A program made the translations under genes and the position numbers. A DNA stretch of 48,925 nucleotides from Gemmatimonadota bacterium (GTDB lineage: Bacteria; Latescibacterota; UBA2968; UBA8231): positions 6,655 through 55,579 of the forward strand of contig JAYOYH010000014.1 of NCBI GenBank assembly GCA_038153405.1. Reading direction: 5' to 3'. The first letter of the stretch is position 1; every line of letters begins with the position of its first letter. Positions 27,683 to 43,922 of this stretch are shown here, in pieces. Under the pieces are notes generated by a model, which saw only the letters and a list, made by a program, of their open reading frames with translations, searched no databases and was not told the origin of the DNA.

Positions 27683-28534
27683 ATGGACTTCAAATCAATT
27701 GGGGTACTGGGCGCCGGCGCGATGGGCAGCGGTATTGCCCAGCTGCTCGTGCAGCGCGGCTACGCCGTCTATCTGTGCGATGTCGATGCACAGGCGCTCG
27801 AACGCGGCGCGGCCGCCATTCGCCGGCGGCTCGATGGACAGGTGCAACAGAACGGGCTATCGGCCTCTCAGCGCGACGCCGCCTGTAGCGCGCTGCAAAC
27901 GACCACCCAACTGGAGGTGGCCTGCGCCGTCGATTTGCTTATCGAAGCCGTGCCCGAACGGCTCGATGCCAAAAGGGCCGCATTTGCCCAACTCGACCGG
28001 GCCGCTCCTCCGAATACCATTCTGGCTAGCAATACCTCGGGGCTGGACATAGACCAGCTAGCGGCCGCGACCCAGCGCGCCGACCGCGTTATCGGCCTGC
28101 ACTTTTTTAACCCACCACCGCGCATGCCACTGGTGGAAATTGCGCGCGGGCGCTCGACCAGCGATGCGACCTTCGACGCCATTTATGCGCTCGCTCAACG
28201 CCTGGACAAGACGCCCATCGCCGTAGCCAATTCACCGGGATTTGCCGTCAACCGCATCCTCTTTCCCATGATTAACGAGGCGATCTACGCGCTGGCAGAG
28301 GGCGTGGCCAGCGCCGCGGACATCGATCGCGCCATGCAGTTGGGCGCTAGCCATCCGCTGGGACCGCTCGCCCTAGCCGATTTCGTCGGCTTGGATGTAA
28401 CGCTCGATATCCTCGACTCCTTTGAGCGCGAATTTGGCAACCCCAAGTACAGGGCGTGTTCTATGCTGCGCGAAAAAGTGGCGCGCGGAGAATTGGGTCG
28501 CAAAACGGGCCGTGGCTTTTTTTCCTACTCTTAA
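27683..28534 (+). CDS. hbd: 3-hydroxybutyryl-CoA / 3-hydroxyacyl-CoA dehydrogenase
   Basis: GAGAMGSGIA, EAVPE, LASNTS, GLHFFNP, PGF.VNR, HPLGPL.LAD and GRKTGRGF. Confidence 0.9.
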   Translation: MDFKSIGVLGAGAMGSGIAQLLVQRGYAVYLCDVDAQALERGAAAIRRRLDGQVQQNGLSASQRDAACSALQTTTQLEVACAVDLLIEAVPERLDAKRAAFAQLDRAAPPNTILASNTSGLDIDQLAAATQRADRVIGLHFFNPPPRMPLVEIARGRSTSDATFDAIYALAQRLDKTPIAVANSPGFAVNRILFPMINEAIYALAEGVASAADIDRAMQLGASHPLGPLALADFVGLDVTLDILDSFEREFGNPKYRACSMLREKVARGELGRKTGRGFFSYS

Positions 28535-29054
28535 CCGCCGGCGTGCTCATTTAGCACACCTGTGCGCCATGGGGCTGATTCTATTCCAGGCCTGCGCGTC
28601 TGTGCGCCCGGCGCCGCGCTACACCCACGCGAGTTCATCCTCCATCGTGCGCGAATTGGAGGCGCGCCAGCGCGGCGGAAACCAGCGCCTGCGCCACGTA
28701 GTGAATAGCTATATCGGCGTGCCGTATAAATGGGGTGGCACGACGCGCAGCGGCATGGACTGCTCGGCCTTTACCCGTGCAGCCTACCGAGAAACCTACG
28801 GTATTGAACTGCCGCGCACCTCCAAGCAGATGTACCAACTGGGCCAATTCGTGTCGCGCCGCCAAGACCTGCACTCCGGCGATCTGGTCTTCTTCAAAGA
28901 CACCTATTCGGGTGCCGGCATATCGCACGTCGGCGTCTACTTAGGCGACGGCCAGTTTGCCCACGCCAGTTCGAGCCGGGGCGTCACCATTACGCCGCTC
29001 AGCAATCCCTATTTCAACAAACGCTACGCCGGCGGACGCCGCATTGAGCGCTGA
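28512..29054 (+). CDS. NlpC/P60 (C40) cell-wall peptidase lipoprotein
   Basis: GVPYKWGG...GMDCSAF, LPRTS, GDLVFF, HVGVY and FAHASS; lipobox FQAC. Start is GTG 28512 or ATG 28569. Confidence 0.92.
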   Translation: MAFFPTLNRRRAHLAHLCAMGLILFQACASVRPAPRYTHASSSSIVRELEARQRGGNQRLRHVVNSYIGVPYKWGGTTRSGMDCSAFTRAAYRETYGIELPRTSKQMYQLGQFVSRRQDLHSGDLVFFKDTYSGAGISHVGVYLGDGQFAHASSSRGVTITPLSNPYFNKRYAGGRRIER

Positions 29055-30381
29055 GCGCCGGCGCCTTGCCGTTCCGTGGCTGCTGGCCGCAGGCATCGAA
29101 GCAGCGCTGCTCTACATCGTCTCCTTGGGCGATCTGCGCCAGAGCGTGCAGCCGTTTTGGGCCGGTGTCTTCGTCGCCTTTGTGCTCTATACCTGTGCCG
29201 CGCTGTGGACGCTGCGCAAGCCCCATGGATCCACGCGAACCATTCTAATCTGTGCGCTGCTGTTCCGCCTGACCATGTGGCACAGTCCCGCTAGCCTGTC
29301 CGACGATATCTATCGCTACGTGTGGGACGGACGCGTGCAGCTGGCTGGCATCAACCCCTATCGCTACGCGCCAGACGCAGCAGAACTAGAGCCGCTGCGC
29401 GACGCGCTGCACGCCGAAATCAACCACCCGCAAATCCCGACGATTTATCCCCCGCTGGCGCAGCTATTCTTCGCCATGGTCGCTGCGGTGCGCGAAAGTC
29501 CGAGCGCCATCAAGCTCGCCCTCACCGCCTTGGATGTGGGCCTCTGTCTCCTCATAGCGGGCCTGCTGACAGTGCGCAATATGGACCCGCGCCGCGTCGT
29601 GCTCTACGCCTGGCATCCACTGCCGCTGGTGGAAATTGCCGGCAGTGGCCACATTGACATCCTCGGCATATTCTTTGTCATGGCCGCGCTCTATGCACTC
29701 TTCACAGCGCGCAGCGCAATGGCGGCAGCGAGTTTGGCCGCTGCCGCACTGGCCAAACTCGTGCCCGCTTTGCTCTTGCCCATTTTTTGGCTGCATACGG
29801 GCCCTCACGAGCCTCGGCGCCTGCGCAATCTGTGGGGGCTGCGCGGTCGCGCTCCACTATGGGCTTTCCCCCTGTGCATGCTTGTGGGCTTCGCGCCGTA
29901 TGCCGAACTGGGCGGCGATCTATTCACCGGATTGAGCACTTATCTGGGCCACTGGCATTTCAACGATTTCGCTTATTCCGCCATCCGCAGCGCGCTCGCG
30001 CCCGTAGATCCGACAGCCGCCACACATGCTCGCTGGCTGTGTGCCCTGCTGCTGGGCATCGCCCTCATACAGACCCTGCGCCAAACGACCGATCCACTGC
30101 GCGCAGCCTACTGGTCTCTCGGCGCCTACGCGCTGCTGTCTCCCACTCTGCACCCCTGGTATTTGCTATGGATTCTGCCCTTTATGCCCTTTTTCCCGAG
30201 CGCCGCTTGGACGCTCCTGGCGGGTCTTGTCTTTCTCGCTTACGAAGTGCTCATCGACTACAGCCTAAGTGGAATTTGGCTTGAGAAATCGTGGGTTCGA
30301 TGGGCGCAGTATACGCCCTTTTATGCACTGCTGGCTTTGGAGCTCTTTGTCCACCGGCACAACCGCATCAAAAGCGCATAG
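29044..30381 (+). CDS. GT-C fold membrane glycosyltransferase (GT87/DUF2029-like, polyprenol-phosphate-sugar dependent)
   Basis: LSDDIYRYVWDG...GINPY, TIYPPLAQ, YAWHPL..E..GSGH.D and PTLHPWY; many TM helices. Confidence 0.8.
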   Translation: MSAERRRLAVPWLLAAGIEAALLYIVSLGDLRQSVQPFWAGVFVAFVLYTCAALWTLRKPHGSTRTILICALLFRLTMWHSPASLSDDIYRYVWDGRVQLAGINPYRYAPDAAELEPLRDALHAEINHPQIPTIYPPLAQLFFAMVAAVRESPSAIKLALTALDVGLCLLIAGLLTVRNMDPRRVVLYAWHPLPLVEIAGSGHIDILGIFFVMAALYALFTARSAMAAASLAAAALAKLVPALLLPIFWLHTGPHEPRRLRNLWGLRGRAPLWAFPLCMLVGFAPYAELGGDLFTGLSTYLGHWHFNDFAYSAIRSALAPVDPTAATHARWLCALLLGIALIQTLRQTTDPLRAAYWSLGAYALLSPTLHPWYLLWILPFMPFFPSAAWTLLAGLVFLAYEVLIDYSLSGIWLEKSWVRWAQYTPFYALLALELFVHRHNRIKSA

Positions 30382-30574: not shown

Positions 30575-31183
30575 ATGGTGAGATATCGCAGCGCAGTTGC
30601 GCTCCTAGCGGCGACCGTTCTCTGCTCGGGCTGTCTTGAACTAGTTCGACGCCCCAGCGGGAGCGAACGCCAACGCACCACGCCCGATCGGGCGGCTCCA
30701 ACCGCAAGCCAAGAGGTTGGGACCGCGGGAAACCCCGCGCCCACCCCAGCAGTTGGAATAGAGCGCGCAGCAGCCCCTGCGGCATACGCAGAGCGCAGCA
30801 GCCGCCAGCGCCGCAGCGTTAAGCGGGTCAATGAATACGCGCTCTGGTGCATAGAAAACGATATGTGGAACGAAGCGCGCTCGCACATGGAGCGCGCACT
30901 GGACCAAGACAGCCTTTCAGCCAGCCTGCACAACAACTTGGGCATAGTATACGAGCGCCTCGGGCAGACCGATAAGGCAAGCACATTTTACCAGCGCGCC
31001 CTGCAGCTCAACCCCGGCGAGAAAGCCTATCAAATCAACTTGCAGGAGCTACAGGAACGCCAACAGGCCCTAGCGGACACATCGGAAGCATTCGACCTAT
31101 TTCGCCCAAACGGGCGCGACGGGCGCCGCGTACGACCCGGCGACGGGGGTGGCAATATGCCCCCTGCTTTCACAGGAGAGTGA
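30575..31183 (+). CDS. Tetratricopeptide-repeat lipoprotein
   Basis: Lipobox LCSGC, a Pro/Ala linker and TPRs (LHNNLGIVYERLGQ..KA...YQRAL.LNP). Confidence 0.85.
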   Translation: MVRYRSAVALLAATVLCSGCLELVRRPSGSERQRTTPDRAAPTASQEVGTAGNPAPTPAVGIERAAAPAAYAERSSRQRRSVKRVNEYALWCIENDMWNEARSHMERALDQDSLSASLHNNLGIVYERLGQTDKASTFYQRALQLNPGEKAYQINLQELQERQQALADTSEAFDLFRPNGRDGRRVRPGDGGGNMPPAFTGE

Positions 31184-31187
31184 GAAG

Positions 31188-34100
31188 GTGCGGCAAAACT
31201 CCACAAAAAAGCGTTTTCGCCGAGCTTGGCTCGTCGTGGCCGCACTGCTGATCGCCTCAGGTGTCCGCGACACATGCGCCCAAGACATTTTGACCATGCA
31301 ACTGCAGCAAGGCTTCGGTAAAAACAAGGTTCGCTACAAGGACTTCCAGTGGGAGATCCTCGAGAGCGAGCACCTCGAACTGCACTTTGAAGCCGAGTTC
31401 CACGAACTGGCCGTGCGCGCCGTAGACTACCTCGAAGAAGCCTACGACCACATCAGTGCAATCATGCACCACGAGCTCTCGCACCGCCCACCCATTGTTA
31501 TCTATCAGTCCCAGTACGAATTTCAGCAGACCAATATCATCCACGAGTTTCTGCCGCCCGGCGTCGCCGGCTTTGCCGAGCCGCTGCGCTACCGCATGGT
31601 CATTCCCTTTGACGGCGACCTCGACGAATTTCGCAACGTGTTAGTGCACGAGCTGGCACATATTTTCCAATACGACATCATCTATAAGGGACCGATCAAG
31701 CGCATCACTAACCCGCTGTCGTCTCCACCGACGTGGATTATGGAAGGGCTGGCCGAATACGCGACACCCGGGCGCAATACCATAGACGAGATGGTACTGC
31801 GCGATGCGGTCCTAACCGACGGCCTAGTCCCCATAGAGGCGATGGATGCGGCTTGGGGCATGGGCAACGTCTTTCTGGCCTACAAACAGAGCCACTCCAT
31901 AATGGAGTACATCGCCGCCAATTACGGCCCGGAAAAAGTCAGCCGTATCCTGCGGCTGTGGGACAGCCAAAAGGATACAGACAAGCTGCTCGAGCGACTT
32001 ATCGATATGGATATGAAAGAGCTCGACGAACGCTGGTCTGCGCATATGCGCAAGCACTACTGGCCGCTGCTGCAGACGCGCGATTACGCATCGGAAATCG
32101 CCGATAAGATCGGCGGAGACGACGACGTGTACCAGATGTTTGCCAGCCCGCGCTGGTCGCTCAGCGGCGATATGCTCGCCGTGCTTTCCTCCGACGGTAT
32201 CGAAGAGCACGTCGACATTATACGCCTCGAGGACGCATCCCTCGTCGAGCGCATTACGCGCAGCATGCGCGCGTCGCGCTTCGATCACCTCACCGCTGGG
32301 GGCGGCACAATCGCCTGGGCACCCGATGGCCACACCATTGCCTTTGTCGCCAAAGACGGCGCGCGCGACCGCATTCTCCTGTGGGATCTATACGACAAAG
32401 ACATCGTCAAGACGCTGCGCGTCGACAATATAGAGACCATCGAATCAATCCATTGGGCGCCCGACAGTCGTCGCCTAGCTCTGATAGGAACCGGCTACGG
32501 ACAGAGCGACCTATACGTGCTCGACGTCTACGATGAAACTCTTCAGCAGCTGACGGGATCGCCTCAGCGCGAAGACCACCCGGTTTTTTCACCCGACGGC
32601 AGCAAAATCGCCTACAGCAGCAAGTACAACAATCAGTTCGATATTAGGATCTATGACATGGCGACGGGCGAAGCGCACACGGCCATTGCCAGTCCGAACG
32701 ACGACCTGTGGCCGCAGTGGCTTCCCGAAGGCAACAAGCTGCTCTTTGTATCAACGCGCGACACGATAAACGACCTCTTTGTATATCACCTCGACGAGGG
32801 GCGCGAATATCGGCTAACGCGCACGCTCAGCGGCATTTCTAACCCAGCGCTGTCGCCCGACGGACGCCAGGTCGTTTTCAGCACCTATTTCAAAGGCCGC
32901 AGCGAACTGTATCTGATGGATATGCCCGACATGCCATCCATCAAGCGCAGAGATGCCGAACTACTAGCGCGCATTGGCCAGGTGCAGCCCACTGCACCCG
33001 ATTCGACGCTGGCCGACAGCGGCACAGCGGACATCGCATTCAACCTATCTGACGATACCAGCCGTGTGCGGCCTGCTGCACGCCCGATCGCTCCTCTAAC
33101 CGACCAAGGGGGGCAGCCCGATCTGCGCAGCGCGGCGCCGCTGGAAGACACCCGCATCTCCAGCGCCGTGCTGCTGGCCAACGCGTCTGGCGCGAATGCA
33201 CCCGACGCGCCGCCCGCCCCGTCGGTCGAGGTACCGGCTCCGACGGAACAGGACGACGAGAGCATTAGCGACGGCGGCGTAGAGCGCAAACTCTATACGC
33301 CCAAGCTGGAATTTGACGGTATTTCTGTGCAGATGGGCTATTTTGACGGATTCTTTTCCTCCATCGCCCAGTTGAGCATGAGCGACCTGCTCGGCAATCA
33401 CGGCCTATCGCTGGCGACAGACTACGTCGCGTCACAAGAAGTCAACAACGATTTCAACTTTGCCATTAGCTACGAATACTACGGCAAACGACCAACCTAT
33501 CGCGCATCGATCTTCAACTGGAACCAGTACTACAACAACAGCAGGACGTTTATCTACCGGGGCCTGCTCGTATCGGGCATCAGCAAAGTACAGCAGCGCG
33601 GCATGCTGGCCGATGCCAGCTATCCCCTCGATCTCTATCGCCGCCTGGAACTCAGCTACACGTACGTAGGAGAGCAGGAAGTGTTGGTATGGCCCATAGA
33701 GGAAGTGGGCGCCAGCACCAGCACGCACCTATTCAAGTCGGCCTTCGTGCACGACTCCATCAACTATGGCTTGCTCGGTCCCACGGCGGGCAAGCGCTAT
33801 TTTCTCTCCGTTGGGCGCACGCTGGACGTTGGCGGCTCGACCCGCTCGTTCTCCCATCTCGAACTCGACTACCGCACCTACCTGCGCCTAGGGCGTTGGT
33901 CGGTATTGGGCCTGCGCGCCTACGGCGTCGGCTCGCTGGGCAGCGACGCGCTGTCTTACAACCTCGGCGGTCCAACGTGGTTCCTGCCCTTCTACACCGG
34001 ATTTAACCTCAATACCGGCCCCCTGCGCGGCTACGATTTCTCCGAATTTTCCGGCAGCCGCGTCGCTTTAGCCAACGTCGAACTACGCGTGCCCTTCGTG

Positions 34101-34433
34101 CGCGGCATTCTCTTTGGGTGGCCTACGACCTTCTTGGTGCCCGCCATTGACGGCAGCATCTTTTTCGACATCGGCACTGCGTGGAACAAGGGCGACACGC
34201 TGGATCCGTGGCCGCTCTTCAATCCCGACACCGACCCAGTTCAGCTGCAGCGCGAAGACGAACGGCGCATGGAAGCGGGCCTGTCAATGCGCAGCCCGCT
34301 GCGCGCCAGCGTCGGCTTCGGCCTATTGGTTTACTTCATGTTGCCCATCAACCTCGAGTTTGCCAAGCAAACGGACCTACAGGGGCACTACTCCGACTAC
34401 AAATTTCACCTGAGCTTTGGTAAGAGCTTTTGA
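31188..34433 (+). CDS. Omp85-family barrel fused to an N-terminal gluzincin (peptidase MA-like) domain and a TolB/PD40 beta-propeller
   Basis: FGKNKVRY N-terminus; VHELAH...WIMEGLAEY; repeats PRWS/WAPDG/PVFSPDG/PALSPDG; GPLRGY lid motif; C-terminal FHLSFGKSF. Start is probably GTG 31188. Confidence 0.88.
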   Translation: MRQNSTKKRFRRAWLVVAALLIASGVRDTCAQDILTMQLQQGFGKNKVRYKDFQWEILESEHLELHFEAEFHELAVRAVDYLEEAYDHISAIMHHELSHRPPIVIYQSQYEFQQTNIIHEFLPPGVAGFAEPLRYRMVIPFDGDLDEFRNVLVHELAHIFQYDIIYKGPIKRITNPLSSPPTWIMEGLAEYATPGRNTIDEMVLRDAVLTDGLVPIEAMDAAWGMGNVFLAYKQSHSIMEYIAANYGPEKVSRILRLWDSQKDTDKLLERLIDMDMKELDERWSAHMRKHYWPLLQTRDYASEIADKIGGDDDVYQMFASPRWSLSGDMLAVLSSDGIEEHVDIIRLEDASLVERITRSMRASRFDHLTAGGGTIAWAPDGHTIAFVAKDGARDRILLWDLYDKDIVKTLRVDNIETIESIHWAPDSRRLALIGTGYGQSDLYVLDVYDETLQQLTGSPQREDHPVFSPDGSKIAYSSKYNNQFDIRIYDMATGEAHTAIASPNDDLWPQWLPEGNKLLFVSTRDTINDLFVYHLDEGREYRLTRTLSGISNPALSPDGRQVVFSTYFKGRSELYLMDMPDMPSIKRRDAELLARIGQVQPTAPDSTLADSGTADIAFNLSDDTSRVRPAARPIAPLTDQGGQPDLRSAAPLEDTRISSAVLLANASGANAPDAPPAPSVEVPAPTEQDDESISDGGVERKLYTPKLEFDGISVQMGYFDGFFSSIAQLSMSDLLGNHGLSLATDYVASQEVNNDFNFAISYEYYGKRPTYRASIFNWNQYYNNSRTFIYRGLLVSGISKVQQRGMLADASYPLDLYRRLELSYTYVGEQEVLVWPIEEVGASTSTHLFKSAFVHDSINYGLLGPTAGKRYFLSVGRTLDVGGSTRSFSHLELDYRTYLRLGRWSVLGLRAYGVGSLGSDALSYNLGGPTWFLPFYTGFNLNTGPLRGYDFSEFSGSRVALANVELRVPFVRGILFGWPTTFLVPAIDGSIFFDIGTAWNKGDTLDPWPLFNPDTDPVQLQREDERRMEAGLSMRSPLRASVGFGLLVYFMLPINLEFAKQTDLQGHYSDYKFHLSFGKSF

Positions 34434-35119
34434 ACTATGCGCTCGCAATCAGCCTGAGCCTGCTGCTAGCCGGCTGCGCTCATAATAGCCGCTTTGAACG
34501 CGTGGAATTTCGCGCCCCATCGCAGCCGGACGCCGCTCTGAAGCCCTTTTTAGAGGACGTCGATCGCATGGGCGTTATTTGCGTGACCAATATCGAGCCG
34601 TCGCGCGAAATCGACGTAGAAAAGGTCATGGCCCTGCTTTCCAATGCCACGGTGCGCGGCCTGAGCAGACTCCCCGATATGACCATCGTACCCCAGGATG
34701 AAATCACTTGGAAATTAAAGGACGTGCACTTTGATTCGACCAGCGTATACGCAGACTCCGTGCGCGCGGCTCTGCGCGACACGCTGTCACTAGACGCCAT
34801 CGTCTTTGTCGAACTGCGCCATCTACAGGCGCGGGTGATGCCCGTGATGCCCACGGCCTACGGCATGAGTCCCAGTCCCAGCGTCGACATGAGCGTCGAC
34901 TTGCAGGTCAGTCTGCTCAATATCCATACGGGACAGGCGTGGAAACAGGGCGGTCAGGAACGCAACTTTGAGCCCGTGCGACTGCAGTTAATGGGGGCCA
35001 ACAATCAGAGCGAACGCCAGCTGCTCATGGCCTTGGGCAAACCCATGCAGCGTTTTTTATCGCGCATAGCGCCGGCTCCACGACCCCAAATGCGCCATTT
35101 TGAAACGGATGGAAACTAA
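34430..35119 (+). CDS. Lipoprotein, possible CsgG/TolB-N/LpoB-like alpha/beta fold
   Basis: Lipobox LLAGC; pattern L.LDAIVFVEL ... V.LQVSLLNIHTGQ.W; 4-nt overlap with the Omp85 gene. Confidence 0.72.
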   Translation: MNYALAISLSLLLAGCAHNSRFERVEFRAPSQPDAALKPFLEDVDRMGVICVTNIEPSREIDVEKVMALLSNATVRGLSRLPDMTIVPQDEITWKLKDVHFDSTSVYADSVRAALRDTLSLDAIVFVELRHLQARVMPVMPTAYGMSPSPSVDMSVDLQVSLLNIHTGQAWKQGGQERNFEPVRLQLMGANNQSERQLLMALGKPMQRFLSRIAPAPRPQMRHFETDGN

Positions 35120-35132
35120 CGTAAATAGACGC

Positions 35133-35173
35133 AAAAAAGGGGCGGCGATCCACTTGGATCGCCGCCCCTTTTT
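35133..35173. terminator. Bidirectional intrinsic terminator
   Basis: A6-GGGGCGGCGATCC/GGATCGCCGCCCC-T5 between convergent genes. Confidence 0.9.
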
Positions 35174-35191: not shown

Positions 35192-35899
35192 TTAACGCCG
35201 CCGCTTTTTCGGGGTTGCGCTCTCTTTGCCGCTAGTCGTCTTGGACGCCGGTGCCGACGTGCTCACAGCGCTGGGACGCGAAGGCGATGAAGAAGGTGCC
35301 GATGGCGTCGCAATCGAACTCGTGCTGCGCGGCGTCGGATCGGGACGGCGCATTTGCGGAGCCGCGCGCCGTATCCACACGTCCTCTTTGTCGCGCATCT
35401 GCTCACGCGCGCGCGCTTGGTCAACCGAAGAGGGCACGCCATTCTGAATATCGGCCAGCGAAGCGCGGATGTCGTCGAGCTCGCGCGTGCTGACCAGCTC
35501 ATAGCCGGGTGGAACGTAAAAGCCGCGACTGTCCGTATAGTAGGGGTCGTAGCCATAGCTGTGCGGACCATATCCGTAGTGGCCATAGGACGAATACGCC
35601 CCGTAAGGCACTGGATACGCGCCATAGCTGCCAGCGCCGTAGTAGCCGCCCCGCAGCGGATAGCCCGCGCCGTAGGCTCCATAGCTGCCCGGCACACCCG
35701 GATAGCGATAGAAATCGTCTTCGGCAGCGGCATCGCGCTCTGCGGATCGATCGTGCTGGCCATCGCGGTCCGCACGCTCGTACTCGTGTTCGTGCAGCGT
35801 ACTCACGGCATACGGATCGGACAGGACGGTATAGCAGCCGCTCAGTGCGACGCTGCTACAGCAGGCAAAAGCCAGGGCTTGTAGTTTTTTGAAGTTCAT
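35192..35899 (-). CDS. Tyr/Gly-rich low-complexity lipoprotein with a Ser/Pro-rich basic tail
   Basis: Lipobox LSGCYT, YGAYG-like repeats and C-terminal PKKRRR; TTGGTC-N17-TATATT upstream. Confidence 0.75.
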   Translation of the reverse strand: MNFKKLQALAFACCSSVALSGCYTVLSDPYAVSTLHEHEYERADRDGQHDRSAERDAAAEDDFYRYPGVPGSYGAYGAGYPLRGGYYGAGSYGAYPVPYGAYSSYGHYGYGPHSYGYDPYYTDSRGFYVPPGYELVSTRELDDIRASLADIQNGVPSSVDQARAREQMRDKEDVWIRRAAPQMRRPDPTPRSTSSIATPSAPSSSPSRPSAVSTSAPASKTTSGKESATPKKRRR

Positions 35900-36012
35900 A
35901 CAATCACCACCTGATCAAGAGGCGCAGCGCATACGAGCCGTCTTCCTCCATAATATACTCAGCAACGGAGGCGAGACCAAATTGTGCCCGAGACGGACTC
36001 GGTCGTCTGGAG

Positions 36013-37338
36013 TTAAAAGCGATAGGCCAAGCCGACAAAGAGGCGCGTGATCACATCTTCTTCGCGCAGCGCGTTGGTGCGCCCATCCACGGCGACCTCT
36101 TCTACCTGTTCAAATCGACCGCGCACCCAAGCTAGGTCGAACTGGACGACTTCGTCTACCAGCAGACCAGCGCCTAGGGTGAAAAACTGCCGATCTTCCA
36201 CGATGCGAATCGGCGGATCGCCGCTAAAGGGATCGGGGTTGCGCGGACCGACAAAGGGCAGCGGGTCCGTATAGAAACCGGCGCGCAGGTCTAACGCAAT
36301 GACCGGCACCTGCCATTCCGCACCGACGTGATAGCGCACCACATCGCGGTACTGGCGCTCAAACGAGGTATCGGCGCGCAGTTGCCCATCGTCGCCGCCC
36401 TCGTATTCGCTCTGCGACCACTCGGCAAGGTGGACGCCCGCCGCCAATAGCACGCCCGGAATCGGCACGTAAGAGCCGCCGAGCGAAAATTCCAGCGGCA
36501 GGGTGATTTCGTAGCGCCCGCGTATCTCTTCGCTATCCGACCGAATCGTCGACCCGTCGTCGTAATCAATGCGGTTATAGCCATCGGGACTGCCGCGAAA
36601 AACATAGCGCACTTCCTGGCCGAGTCCCGAAGTAATCGAAGCGCCCAAGCGCAGGCGGGGCCGCTCGCGCGGAACGCGCACCATGGCGCCCAATTTGGCA
36701 TACCACGAGCTCCTGTAATCGTCGGAGAATGTATCGGAGGCTAAAAAGCGCCGTTCCCCGTAGAGATCCTGGCGATCCTCCCACGAGAAATCGTTGCTCG
36801 CTTCGTCCTCGCCGCCGGTAACGCCCAGCGTCAAACCCAACGACAGCGAGGAAGAAACGTCAATAGCGACAGCCAGCGAAGAGAGCGCCAACTCGCCTTC
36901 GTGTTGGAATAGATGGTCGACATACAGGCTGTCTACCGCATCCACACCCGTCTGGCGCAGGCTCCAATCGAAGTCCTTTAGGCGACTAAACCCTATGGCA
37001 AATACCAGGCTCCCCTGATACACGGGGTAGGGGTAGACAAAACCCAGCGAACCAAAGCGCGTGTTGCTCAACTGACTGCTGGCCAGGGTCCCGTTGAAGG
37101 CGGATTCTGCGTCTCGGCTGTTGCGCAAAAAGCCGACGCGCACTTCGCGCTGGCGCATCTGAGCTAGGCCCGCCGGATTCCAGTACACGGCGGTAAAATC
37201 GTCGGCCACGCCGGCAAAAGCACCGCCCATACCCATGGCGCGCACGCCGACGCCGGCAAAGTTATCAATCGCCCGCTCCTCCTGCGGCCAGGCGGTGCTA
37301 CCCAGCAAAAAGAGGCACAGCAGCCAGTAAAATCGCAT
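36013..37338 (-). CDS. OmpP1/FadL-family 14-stranded outer-membrane barrel
   Basis: GVRAMGMGGAF..VADD.TA.YWNPAGL hatch motif, LRAGF and C-terminal LAYRF. Confidence 0.88.
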   Translation of the reverse strand: MRFYWLLCLFLLGSTAWPQEERAIDNFAGVGVRAMGMGGAFAGVADDFTAVYWNPAGLAQMRQREVRVGFLRNSRDAESAFNGTLASSQLSNTRFGSLGFVYPYPVYQGSLVFAIGFSRLKDFDWSLRQTGVDAVDSLYVDHLFQHEGELALSSLAVAIDVSSSLSLGLTLGVTGGEDEASNDFSWEDRQDLYGERRFLASDTFSDDYRSSWYAKLGAMVRVPRERPRLRLGASITSGLGQEVRYVFRGSPDGYNRIDYDDGSTIRSDSEEIRGRYEITLPLEFSLGGSYVPIPGVLLAAGVHLAEWSQSEYEGGDDGQLRADTSFERQYRDVVRYHVGAEWQVPVIALDLRAGFYTDPLPFVGPRNPDPFSGDPPIRIVEDRQFFTLGAGLLVDEVVQFDLAWVRGRFEQVEEVAVDGRTNALREEDVITRLFVGLAYRF

Positions 37339-38084
37339 CAGAATTCCTCGGTGTAGACAACGGCTAATTCGCGGCTGGGCTCGGTCGCGTCCATACCGCG
37401 CTGCAGCATGTTCTTAAAAAAGATCGACAGCTTTAGCTGCGGTGCCACGGTCCAGCGAGCGCCGACATTTAAATAGCCCACATCGTCACTGCCATCATTG
37501 AGCGCCAGCTCGTACTCCCCGAGCAGCGATACATCTTCGTTGATGCTTTTGTCGGCACCAACCCATCCGCTGACGCCCTCACCACCCGCCTCTTCGCGAC
37601 TTCTATTAGCCCCGGCATGAATGCCGAACTGACCCAGTGCCGAAGTATAGTTTTTGCTCAACGCCACAAATACGCCCTTCGACTTGCTCTGGTAGCGCCC
37701 TCCGCCGTAGTGGCCAAAGCCCTGCGTCTCATAGCCCAGAACCAGCGCTGGCCACACGGCACTTTCCTCTATGAAGCGATAGCGCGCGGCGACCTCGACG
37801 CGCGGATTCCATTCGACCGCTCCCCGACCTATAATATTGCCCCCGCCAAAGGAAAGGCCGATCGTCAGCCGTTTCAGCGCACCGGCTTGGACCTGACCGA
37901 GCACACCCCCATCGGCGAATAGCCGCAGACCAACCGCGTAGCGCCCCTTGCCAACTAGGCCTGCAGTGGGACTATCGACTAGGCGCGCTAGTTCAGCGGA
38001 CTCGGCCGCTTCGGCACGGCCAAGTAGCCACGCGCTCAGCAGCGCGCACAGTGCACACCCGACTATTCTCCTGTATCTGCGCAA
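37338..38084 (-). CDS. YjbH-like outer-membrane beta-barrel
   Basis: LVDSPTAG N-terminus, PALVLG, FVALSK, GYLNVGARW and C-terminal F; GGAGGG RBS before TTG. Confidence 0.75.
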   Translation of the reverse strand: MRRYRRIVGCALCALLSAWLLGRAEAAESAELARLVDSPTAGLVGKGRYAVGLRLFADGGVLGQVQAGALKRLTIGLSFGGGNIIGRGAVEWNPRVEVAARYRFIEESAVWPALVLGYETQGFGHYGGGRYQSKSKGVFVALSKNYTSALGQFGIHAGANRSREEAGGEGVSGWVGADKSINEDVSLLGEYELALNDGSDDVGYLNVGARWTVAPQLKLSIFFKNMLQRGMDATEPSRELAVVYTEEF

Positions 38085-38116
38085 TACGCCCTCCCTATTT
38101 TCGCAGAAACGCGGCG

Positions 38117-38563
38117 CTATTGCCTGTGCTCAATGGCGACGCTGCGCTCTGCATCTCCCCGATATTCCAACTGCACTTCCACCCGCCTAGGCGGCAAGAG
38201 CTGCCCGGCGCGCTCGGCCCACTCCACCAAGCAGATGCCGTCGCCGTAAAAGTATTCCTCCGCACCCAGTGCATACAGCTCATCTTCTCCGCTCAGCCGA
38301 TACAGATCAAAGTGATAAATGGGCAGCGGCTGCTCAGCCCGCGTTCCGGCATATTCATTGATCAGGATAAACGTAGGGCTGGTGACGTAGTCACGCACGG
38401 CAAAGGCCTGGCATATGCCCTGTATCATGCAGGTCTTACCGCTGCCCAAGTCACCGCGAAAAGCCACCACGCTGCCCGGCCCCAGCGCCTCGCCCAAAGC
38501 GCGACCCAGCGCCTGCGTCTCGTCGGGAGAATGCGTAGAAAACGTGCCTCCTAGTACCTCCAT
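38117..38563 (-). CDS. tsaE: tRNA threonylcarbamoyladenosine biosynthesis ATPase TsaE
   Basis: GDLGSGKT, VTSPTF, YHFDLYRL and VEWAE. Confidence 0.97.
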   Translation of the reverse strand: MEVLGGTFSTHSPDETQALGRALGEALGPGSVVAFRGDLGSGKTCMIQGICQAFAVRDYVTSPTFILINEYAGTRAEQPLPIYHFDLYRLSGEDELYALGAEEYFYGDGICLVEWAERAGQLLPPRRVEVQLEYRGDAERSVAIEHRQ

Positions 38564-38564
38564 C

Positions 38565-40127
38565 CTACTTGGGCTCCATGATGGCTACGGGTAAGACCAT
38601 TTCCTGCATCGATATGCCGCCGTGTTGAAACGAGTCTTTGAACTGGCGCTGGTACTCATTGAAATTAGTCGGATAGACCAGATAAAAGTCTTCCTTGGCA
38701 ATGATGAAGTTAGCCCCCAAGCCGGCGCTGGGCAGACCGTAGCGCTCGGGTTGCTCAATGCGCAGGGCATCGCGCTCTTCACAGCGCAGATTGCGCCCGT
38801 ATTTGTAGCGCAAATTATTCGACGTATCGCGGTCGCCGTGCACCACGGTAGCGCGACTGCTCCGCACGGCGCCGTGATCGGTCGTCAACACGACGACGGC
38901 ATCGGTGCGCGCAACGCCCTTGAGCGTTTCAAAGAGCGAGGAGTGGCCGAACCAAGACTGCACCAAGTCGCGAAAGGCCTGCTCGTCTGGCGCCATCTCC
39001 TTGAGCAGTTCGGACTGGGCCCGTCCGTGTACGAGCATGTCGAGAAAGTTATATACTATGGATACCAAAGGCCACTTGCGCAGCGACGTTACTTTGCGAG
39101 TCAAGTTTTGCGCCTCGCTGGTATCGAGCACTTTAACGTAGTGCGACCCCGGATTGAGTGCGGTTCCCATATCGGCGATCTGGTCGTCGATAAACTGGTG
39201 TTCGTGGCGATTTAAACTATTCTCATTATCCTGCGCATTGCCCCACATATTGGGATATTTGGCGGCAATTTCAGCGGGGAACAAACCGCTGAATATGGCG
39301 TTGCGCGAATAGGGCGTGGCCGTCGGTAGAATCGAGTAATGGTAGGAACGCTTGATATTAAAATACTCGGCCAACTGCGGCTCCATGACCATCCAGTGAT
39401 CGAGTCGCAAACAGTCGACGACGATAAAGAACACCTGGCGCCCGGCCTCGATATAGGGCATGACAAATTCGGGCACCACGTCGACCGATAGCGGCGGCGA
39501 GTCTTCTTCGTCGTCAATCCACGTCGCGTAGTGGCGCTCGACAAAGCGCGCGAACTCCTGGTTGCACTCGCGCTGCTGGTCTTCGACCATCTGCTGCAAA
39601 CCCGGGTCGCCGAGTCGACCCACTTCGATATTCCATTCGCAGAGCTGGCGATAGACGTCGATCCAGGTCTTCCAGGTGGTTTCCCCGGAAAGTTGCTCGC
39701 GAATCTGCCCGGACTTCGACACGTAGTTCTGACCGGCCTGACTCTGGCGAATCTGGCGCGTATCGAGGATTCTTTTACAGGCCATAAAGATCTGGCTCGG
39801 ATTGACCGGCTTGGTCAAGTAATCGTCGATGCGCCGCCCGATGGCCTCGTTCATGAGGTGTTCTTCTTCGTTTTTGGTGATCATAATCACCGGCACATTG
39901 GGATCCACTTCTTTGATGCGCTCCAACGTCGATAGTCCGTCCAGACCGGGCATCATTTCGTCGAGTAAGACGATATCGAAGGGCCGCTGGCCAATGAGTT
40001 CTATGGCGTCCTTGCCGTTGTTTACCGGCGTAACCTCATAGCCCTTGTCTCCGAGAAAACGGTGGTGTGGCCGCAGCAATTCGATTTCGTCATCGGCCCA
40101 CAAAATCTGGCGTTTGTTGTCTTCCAT
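38565..40127 (-). CDS. porX: PorX-type response regulator (REC + PglZ/alkaline-phosphatase domain)
   Basis: ILWADDEIELL.PH, LDEMMPG, ITKNEEE, DCLRLD.W, SILPTAT.YSRNAIFSG, TTDHG, RYK.G.NL and FQHGGIS; adjacent to tsaE. Confidence 0.93.
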   Translation of the reverse strand: MEDNKRQILWADDEIELLRPHHRFLGDKGYEVTPVNNGKDAIELIGQRPFDIVLLDEMMPGLDGLSTLERIKEVDPNVPVIMITKNEEEHLMNEAIGRRIDDYLTKPVNPSQIFMACKRILDTRQIRQSQAGQNYVSKSGQIREQLSGETTWKTWIDVYRQLCEWNIEVGRLGDPGLQQMVEDQQRECNQEFARFVERHYATWIDDEEDSPPLSVDVVPEFVMPYIEAGRQVFFIVVDCLRLDHWMVMEPQLAEYFNIKRSYHYSILPTATPYSRNAIFSGLFPAEIAAKYPNMWGNAQDNENSLNRHEHQFIDDQIADMGTALNPGSHYVKVLDTSEAQNLTRKVTSLRKWPLVSIVYNFLDMLVHGRAQSELLKEMAPDEQAFRDLVQSWFGHSSLFETLKGVARTDAVVVLTTDHGAVRSSRATVVHGDRDTSNNLRYKYGRNLRCEERDALRIEQPERYGLPSAGLGANFIIAKEDFYLVYPTNFNEYQRQFKDSFQHGGISMQEMVLPVAIMEPK

Positions 40128-43094: not shown

Positions 43095-43922
43095 CTATTG
43101 CAGCAGCGAGAGTAGGCGACTGATGTCGGCGTCGGCTTCTCTGGCTATATTCGTCGCCGTCTGCGAGAGAATCTGCGAGCGCGTGAGGTTGGATACCGCC
43201 CGCGCGACGTCGACGTCGCGCACGCTAGACTCGGCGTCCTGCATGCGTTCGACAATACTGGCTGTCGTTTCTGCGCTCATCTGCAGGCGATTTTGAAAAG
43301 CGGCGATGCGATTGCGCTGGTCGAGCACCTTAAGGTGCGCTTCATCCAGCAGGTCGACGGCCTTTTGCGCGCCGCCTACAACATCGATGGTAACCGGCGC
43401 TAAATTTAGCTTGGCACCCGATGCGCGCATATCTCCAAACTCTATGTGCGATACATCGTTGCCCGTTTCCGTGGGACCGGCCTGAATAGCCAGCTGGCGT
43501 TCGTTGTCCAACAGCGGCATGCCGTTGTATACCGTAAATTCCGCAATGCGATCTACTTCGTTTTTTATCTGCTGGAATTCGTTATTGGCCAAGCGGCGGT
43601 TGTCGTCATTGTAGGTCATCGAACTGGACTGCACGGCCAGCTCGCGCATGCGCCGCACCATATCGGATATCTGCGAAAGTGCACCTTCAGCCACCTGCAG
43701 CATGTGGACGCTGTGCTGCACGTTGCGACCGCCCTCTTGCAGGGCCCGCGTCTCCGCTTCAATGCCGTTGGCCAATGCCAAGTTGGCCGCGTCATCGCTC
43801 GATCGATTGACCCGATGCCCGGAAGCAATCTGCCCCATCTGGCGATTGGCATTCTCAAAATGCACGTTGAGATTGCGATGCATGCTCTGCAAATGAGCAT
43901 TGTGATTTATGCGCGCTGGCAT
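43095..43922 (-). CDS. fliC: Flagellin (minimal D0/D1 only, divergent)
   Basis: RINHN, SG.RVN..SDDAA, QVAEGAL, RMRELAVQ, QNRL, RDVD.A and LLSLL. Confidence 0.88.
   Translation of the reverse strand: MPARINHNAHLQSMHRNLNVHFENANRQMGQIASGHRVNRSSDDAANLALANGIEAETRALQEGGRNVQHSVHMLQVAEGALSQISDMVRRMRELAVQSSSMTYNDDNRRLANNEFQQIKNEVDRIAEFTVYNGMPLLDNERQLAIQAGPTETGNDVSHIEFGDMRASGAKLNLAPVTIDVVGGAQKAVDLLDEAHLKVLDQRNRIAAFQNRLQMSAETTASIVERMQDAESSVRDVDVARAVSNLTRSQILSQTATNIAREADADISRLLSLLQ

Follow-up and report, generated by a model that had tools for sequence, protein, structure and literature searches.

What is the function of a protein that joins a zinc peptidase, a beta-propeller and an Omp85 barrel in a single chain, and of the two lipoproteins encoded on either side of it? 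This question is raised by three co-oriented, forward-strand genes at positions 30575-35119 of a 48,925-nucleotide stretch of DNA (the window; contig JAYOYH010000014.1 of GenBank assembly GCA_038153405.1, Latescibacterota in GTDB). They encode a tetratricopeptide repeat (TPR) lipoprotein (30575-31183, ATG start, 202 amino acids; identified by Pfam, alignment and a motif tally), a WD40-like Omp85 protein (31188-34433, GTG start, 1081 amino acids; signal peptide, gluzincin peptidase, TolB-like propeller, linker and barrel) and a second lipoprotein, LP3 (34430-35119, TTG start, 229 amino acids), with a 4-nt gap at the first junction and a 4-nt overlap, TTGA, at the second. The central protein is a member of the catalogued WD40-like Omp85 subfamily and not new; what is new here is a pair of dedicated lipoprotein partners of this barrel protein in one Latescibacterota clade. 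An insertase-type barrel, an intact protease site and a three-gene module conserved in the clade are supported by the results below, and the three proteins probably act together.

The domains of the central protein were assigned by Pfam as Peptidase_MA_2 (PF13485, residues 103-287, E = 4.5e-15, 56.4 bits against a cut-off of 32.4), PD40 (PF07676, E = 3.6e-19, 68.6 bits, cut-off 20.9) and Omp85 (PF01103, residues 768-1081, E = 3e-13, 50.4 bits, cut-off 24). No POTRA family was matched at E<=0.05 in the same scan, in line with an earlier sequence-only reading of the window in which POTRA domains were said to be missing, and the BamA model TIGR03303 gave 29.9 bits against a cut-off of 297. Conservation was examined in an alignment of 34 proteins with identities down to 26%, and an AlphaFold model was built from a 34-sequence alignment (predicted local distance difference test, pLDDT, 74; predicted template modelling score 0.67). 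The zinc ligands, the catalytic Glu, a Tyr, the L-R-G of the barrel lid and the strand-13 motif F-x-D-x-G were all invariant in 34/34 proteins.

The zinc site (31647-31745, forward strand) is of the gluzincin type, with H154-E155-x-x-H158 (HELAH at residue 154, position 31647) and the downstream Glu ligand E186 (in EGLAEY). The intact HExxH...E site of the earlier reading was thus confirmed, and HExxH is kept in 77/77 GTDB loci and 79/80 metagenomic loci (both sets are described below). The region aligns to the HExxH…EGxAE of collagenase ColG, the closest solved peptidase, and the fold assignment of the domain rests on Pfam and this weak ColG match (E = 0.056). Tyr232 (31881-31883, forward strand) is the residue that was invariant across alignments, and from the general gluzincin mechanism we take it to be a candidate oxyanion-stabilising residue.

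The PD40 propeller (32136-32921, forward strand) was identified by both Pfam and structure, with a Z score of 26.7 to TolB and a root-mean-square deviation (rmsd) of 2.5 Å over 244 residues, as expected from the sequence-only reading; its strand count in the AlphaFold model corresponds to six blades, and its structural matches include the propeller-gated peptidases tricorn and S9. The Pro/Ala/Asp linker that follows is present (residues 599-696, 32982-33275, forward strand; pLDDT<50; A 17%, P 13%, D 12%, S 11%), with a length of about 98 residues by pLDDT instead of the roughly 110 first estimated. Among homologues the propeller-to-barrel segment ranges from 33 to 136 residues and is only 33-41 residues in two of the families considered below (f8 and f6) and in several paralogues.

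The barrel (33309-34430, forward strand) has 16 strands in the AlphaFold model, counted from the DSSP list, and superimposes on BamA barrels with Z 21-25. The LRGY lid (34023-34034, residue 946) and C-terminal Phe described earlier were both found, together with a strand-13 motif (34161-34175) that reads FFDIG. The insertase combination of a (V/I)RG(Y/F) lid with FxDxG in strand 13 is therefore present, with Leu at the first lid position. FxDxG is the motif of the BamA and TamA insertases and GxDxG that of FhaC translocases (PMC4490367; statements on this and the other papers cited by accession refer to their accessible text), and the barrel carries the signature typical of insertases and not that of translocases. 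In some superpositions on BamA, model residues 78-84 or 22-24, which have low pLDDT, overlie the last POTRA domain; this is a hint, to be used as a lead only, that the peptidase may be positioned beneath the barrel.

The combination of a 16-strand PF01103 barrel, a TolB-like PD40 propeller in place of POTRA domains and an N-terminal aminopeptidase- or collagenase-like domain is that of the WD40-like Omp85 subfamily defined by Heinz and Lithgow in 2014 (PMC4104836). In Table S3 of that paper most members have an entry under 'best aminopeptidase hit'; the word 'peptidase' does not occur in the accessible main text, which compares the WD40-like proteins to a BamA-BamB fusion. A 2024 paper described 'divergent WD40 and peptidase domains' in the subfamily (PMC11358297), and another counted it among those not well characterised (PMC11116518). 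The proposal that the locus encodes an undescribed system could therefore not be upheld for the peptidase-propeller-barrel protein, which had been catalogued with its peptidase. The accompanying remark that the subfamily is functionally uncharacterised agrees with our literature search, mostly without subscription journals, in which neither an experimental study of the family nor a paper linking Latescibacter, Omp85 and the outer membrane was found; nor did any full-length member turn up among solved structures. What the triad clade adds to the subfamily, for which neither partner genes nor a function are given in the accessible text of PMC4104836, is two lipoproteins and an N-terminal helix. 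This helix (31281-31310, forward strand) is predicted in the mature protein directly before the family motif FGKNKV, with a low pLDDT of 44. It is present in the three families with the triad and absent from family f6 and from 16 other aligned homologues, and is a candidate partner-binding site.

The first lipoprotein consists of a lipobox with Cys20, a conserved CLELVRR-type motif (tallied over 70 loci), a variable low-complexity tether and a helical domain of about 75 residues. It contains about two TPRs, confined to residues 83-150 (Pfam TPR_2, E = 9e-13). The suggestion that it is a BamD-like partner did not hold. The BamD/YfiO models TIGR03302 and PF13525 gave no match to it in the Pfam and NCBIfam scans, and it is not among the 13 PF13525 matches in the genome. 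BamD (TIGR03302, 135 bits, cut-off 81) and BamA (TIGR03303, 465 bits, cut-off 297; one of seven PF01103 matches) are encoded elsewhere. Given the lack of a BamD-model match and the presence of a separate BamD, the TPR gene of the triad is not bamD, and given that both BamA and BamD are encoded separately, the module is accessory. The taxon-named homologues of the TPR protein among the matches listed (120 of 190) were Latescibacterota, apart from one labelled 'Gemmatimonadetes' and one labelled 'bacterium', and a TPR profile at E<=1e-14 found nothing in a sample of 61 genomes belonging to the phylum of genome G168, a set without a positive control.

LP3 has a lipobox LAGC with Cys16, which is invariant in 20/20 sequences, a short tether and an alpha/beta fold of the TolB_N/CsgG/PelC/FlgT type. 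No family was matched in Pfam (E<=0.05) or NCBIfam. Its model (pLDDT 83.6) matched FlgT, PelC, HpaA, GNA1162, CT253, TolB_N and CsgG at Z 8-12 (PelC: Z 10.6, rmsd 3.4 Å, 131 residues), further matches included LptE, and the fold is also common to LpoB; an Atlas search with the LP3 homologue P0121 gave 0.95-0.96 for a TolB_N-type fold. The label 'CsgG/TolB-N-like' is thus correct at the level of fold and has no counterpart in a sequence-profile match to those families. The family is small (33 representatives among 1.84 billion). Six distant matches to the LP3 profile carry no TPR part, and among these a CsgG match was limited to the weakest, P0153 (LP3-profile E = 4e-4). Second copies of LP3, frameshifted or truncated, were observed at L059:7482-8197 (genome G017) and L060:6502-7263 (genome G132).

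If the flanking lipoproteins were dedicated to the barrel protein, one would expect them to occur with it, and this had been proposed for the locus. To examine the distribution we surveyed 153 genomes of the phylum, all of 80% completeness or more. Of these, 150 have a homologous barrel (E<=1e-8), but members of the close clade (E<1e-50) are restricted to families f1, f9, f8 and f6. TPR orthologues (E<=1e-18) were found in 67/68 genomes of f1, 3/3 of f6, 1/1 of f8, 2/2 of f9 and 0/78 others, and LP3 by the initial search in 68/68 of f1, 2/2 of f9 and 0/82 others; LP3 was later recovered in f8 when a profile was scanned locally (E = 8e-15), and a wider profile added one f6 genome out of three (E = 2.5e-10). 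Both orthologues are thereby confined to genomes with the close barrel clade. The barrel gene of the triad shows vertical inheritance at close to one copy per genome.

Patterns specific to the clade, run across GTDB, retrieved 77 loci, of which those cut by contig ends were dropped from the adjacency counts. The TPR gene adjoins the barrel gene in 74/75 evaluable loci, the single miss being an outgroup of 32% identity, and LP3 adjoins it in 71/73, the misses belonging to f6; the two loci dropped from the TPR count are also from f6, and one of them visibly has a different upstream gene. The next genes outward served as a control, and were directly adjacent in only 39/73 loci (a GT87 glycosyltransferase gene, upstream) and 44/66 loci (a Tyr-rich lipoprotein gene). 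Given that the outer neighbours keep adjacency far less than the triad genes, insertions are located at the borders of the triad. The neighbours in f9 and f8 are unrelated, yet the three genes stay together there, and the triad is thus found in three families (f1, f9, f8) with differing flanks. Among 80 metagenomic loci, five fall in the triad clade, with the TPR gene upstream in 5/5 and LP3 downstream in the 3/3 where the flank allows; one of these LP3 genes is split in two frames. These counts bear out the expected co-occurrence and establish a conserved module in one Latescibacterota clade. Conservation across the Fibrobacterota-Chlorobiota-Bacteroidota group was not obtained, as 0/75 distant metagenomic homologues have these partners.

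Some further loci of the scans deserve mention. In other Latescibacterota families (L073, L075, L078), two peptidase-barrel genes are separated by no more than a few kb. In about a dozen distant loci (L186-L218), the barrel gene repeatedly follows a MurA-like gene of about 420 amino acids, as judged by eye from N-termini. L125, L130 and others that are labelled Planctomycetota, Gammaproteobacteria or Gemmatimonadetes have the gene content typical of f1 and are probably mislabelled assemblies.

A link between the two lipoproteins themselves came from the LP3 profile search. One match, P0148 (356 amino acids), and its relative P0163, which is 64% identical and from another source, each unite in one chain the lipobox Cys with domains of the TPR and LP3 types. 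By hhalign the fusion matched the TPR alignment at 98.4% and the LP3 alignment at 94.5%. When the fusion profile was run against all 42,164 frames of the genome, the top match was the TPR gene of the triad (E = 1e-15); with the C-terminal half the top match was LP3 (E = 4e-6 and 2e-8), followed at a distance by the next matches (0.04 and 0.66). The fused form was found in none of 168 phylum genomes, where only the TPR part was matched at E<=1e-12. Because both lipoproteins are naturally fused in another lineage, the two flanking lipoproteins very likely cooperate, as judged from these sequences.

Our preferred though tentative interpretation, which we regard as a possible one, is that the module forms an accessory, periplasm-facing station that would hold and cut misfolded, stalled or precursor envelope proteins beside BamA and BamD. 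In PlpD an enzyme domain is fused to an Omp85 barrel and this domain remains periplasmic (PMC11116518), and by analogy the peptidase would stay in the periplasm. The TPR lipoprotein on its long tether would capture or present substrates, providing in trans the TPR part that BepA has in cis. LP3 on its short tether would sit at the periplasmic rim of the barrel as a scaffold, comparable to the PelC ring on the barrel rim of the PelBC exporter (PMC12141448). The barrel would bind beta-strands of clients at its seam, and the station would perform quality control or processing alongside the ordinary BamA/BamD machine.

With the machinery for beta-barrel assembly (BAM), exemplified by BamADGH of Bacteroidota (PMC12611786), the triad shares a 16-strand barrel, an (L/V/I)RG(Y/F) lid, the FxDxG lock and lipoprotein partners, whereas its barrel lacks POTRA domains and has a built-in peptidase, and its TPR partner is far smaller than BamD. 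BepA of E. coli, an M48 HExxH peptidase with TPRs that chaperones or degrades clients on BAM (PMC8423444), likewise brings together an HExxH zinc peptidase, a TPR domain and an Omp85 barrel; in the triad, however, the peptidase is of the collagenase-like Peptidase_MA_2 type and forms one chain with a barrel of its own, and the TPR domain is a separate lipoprotein. PlpD, also an enzyme-barrel fusion, retains a POTRA domain and has been described as a homodimer, and its enzyme is a patatin-like domain, not a peptidase. PelBC combines a barrel with a lipoprotein of the LP3-type fold, but it exports polysaccharide and is without a peptidase.

Several observations weigh against an envelope station. 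The barrel protein is without POTRA domains, the usual client-binding arm, and the fold of LP3 is generic. What the fusion joins is the two lipoproteins, leaving the barrel apart; a metagenome scan for its genomic context gave 118 pattern matches and no relative. The triad forms a single clade with f6 as sister (quick tree search; Shimodaira-Hasegawa-like approximate likelihood ratio test 94 and 99), so that the 70-odd genomes count as one origin, and in f6 the three genes are dispersed. In the 75 distant metagenomic loci, many with short flanks, there was no LP3 match and one unrelated long TPR protein; 16 hand-picked neighbours gave no TPR or CsgG-type Pfam match and the remaining neighbours were judged by first residues. 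Such partners are also missing next to the paralogues and f2-f4 homologues that were examined. Since most members are without partners, the lipoproteins cannot be required for the core function of the family, and since tight operons resist insertion, the cohesion of the genes shows co-transcription and not binding.

The same points, namely the single origin, the dispersal in f6, the 75 distant loci without such partners and a fusion that ties only the lipoproteins, would fit the absence of any machine, that is, a standard WD40-like Omp85 gene that shares its operon by inheritance with two lipoproteins whose work is independent of it. We consider this quite unlikely, given that gene order is kept over long branches in three families in which both flanks have changed, that TPR and LP3 orthologues occur only with the barrel clade although 150/153 genomes have a homologous barrel, and that the N-terminal helix of the barrel protein tracks the triad. 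A role in regulatory proteolysis, in which the barrel would mainly be an anchor and the TPR lipoprotein would bring the peptidase its targets, cell-wall hydrolases or other proteins of the periplasm, is unlikely as well. It could account for the co-oriented NlpC/P60 protein encoded within 7 kb upstream in 60/77 loci, whose best NCBIfam match is the Spr/MepS-type NF008096 (E = 6e-34, below cut-off), and for an LP3 fold common to LpoB and TolB_N. NlpI and LbcA are TPR proteins. Adaptor-guided proteolysis has precedents in NlpI-Prc and LbcA-CtpA (PMC6050968, PMC8996183). However, the NlpC/P60 gene is not beside the triad in f9, f8 and some f1 loci and the GT87 gene usually intervenes, the TPR domain consists of no more than about two repeats, and a mere anchor would not need invariant lid-lock motifs.

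The lid-lock motifs also imply a closed lid, which is difficult to reconcile with nutrient uptake, where the barrel would admit peptides or unfolded protein, the propeller would filter by size and the peptidase would digest in the periplasm. This function is improbable: the weak match to ColG as closest solved peptidase, the tricorn and S9 peptidases among the propeller matches and the four such fusions in the genome are compatible with it, but the gene is inherited vertically, at nearly one copy per genome, amid envelope and housekeeping neighbours, and no peptide-transport genes were seen beside it. Very improbable, finally, is processing-coupled export or surface display, in which the barrel would translocate its own peptidase-propeller passenger or a client cleaved on exit. 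The 98-residue disordered linker could span the membrane, and such an option was raised for the related 'Metallo' subfamily (PMC4104836); on the other hand, strand 13 carries FxDxG and not the translocase motif GxDxG, the PlpD domain proved periplasmic, and with only 33-41 residues between propeller and barrel in f6, f8 and several of the paralogues, threading through the pore is disfavoured.

A bolder version of the envelope station can also be drawn, in which the TPR adaptor and the PelC-fold lipoprotein would feed the peptidase under the barrel mouth and couple insertion to cleavage in a second, POTRA-less Omp85 machine. This is rather doubtful; if true, it would be a three-subunit protease-insertase and, if shared across phyla, an envelope complex parallel to BAM and to TAM (translocation and assembly module). 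The locus supplies candidate subunits (from the linkage controls and the gene fusion), a helix that is a candidate for binding and a barrel signature of the insertase type, and the function of peptidase-Omp85 proteins becomes a defined three-protein question, within the limits of a core protein that was already catalogued and of partners that are clade-restricted in the data at hand.

The organisms that carry the module are known from metagenome assemblies, the named homologues being Candidatus Latescibacterota and Handelsmanbacteria. Sigma-70-like sites at the locus were at chance level (1 found, 3.3 expected). Small shares of three RNA runs gave short contigs on the TPR and barrel genes and also on neighbouring genes, and none that crossed a junction between triad genes; these contigs were not used as evidence. 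The sequence-only reading had both gene junctions and frames right, and the terminator it placed after the operon corresponds to an 18-bp hairpin at 35134-35173, between convergent genes, with an A-tract before and a T-tract after it, which resembles an intrinsic terminator and is probably bidirectional.

Four peptidase-propeller-barrel proteins are encoded in the genome in all, the three further HExxH proteins of the same architecture being located at G000:C1:37498-40305, C10:109132-112314 and C23:39327-42728; the C1 paralogue was also found across f1. Upstream of the triad and co-oriented with it lie the genes for the NlpC/P60 protein and the GT87-like membrane glycosyltransferase (28422-30381), which in other genomes are often parted from the triad by inserted genes. 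Downstream, a convergent block on the reverse strand (35192-40127) encodes PorX (NF052313, above cut-off), a TsaE-like and a YjbH-like protein, a FadL-type barrel and a Tyr/Gly-rich lipoprotein. It is kept beside the triad in most of f1 and not in f9 or f8, and in genome G017 it seems to have been shifted about 12 kb by an insertion. The FadL-type barrel has a weak BamG match (E = 1e-12, below cut-off) and could be a BamG equivalent. Further along, the protein family scan identified a flagellin gene at 43095-43922 on the reverse strand.

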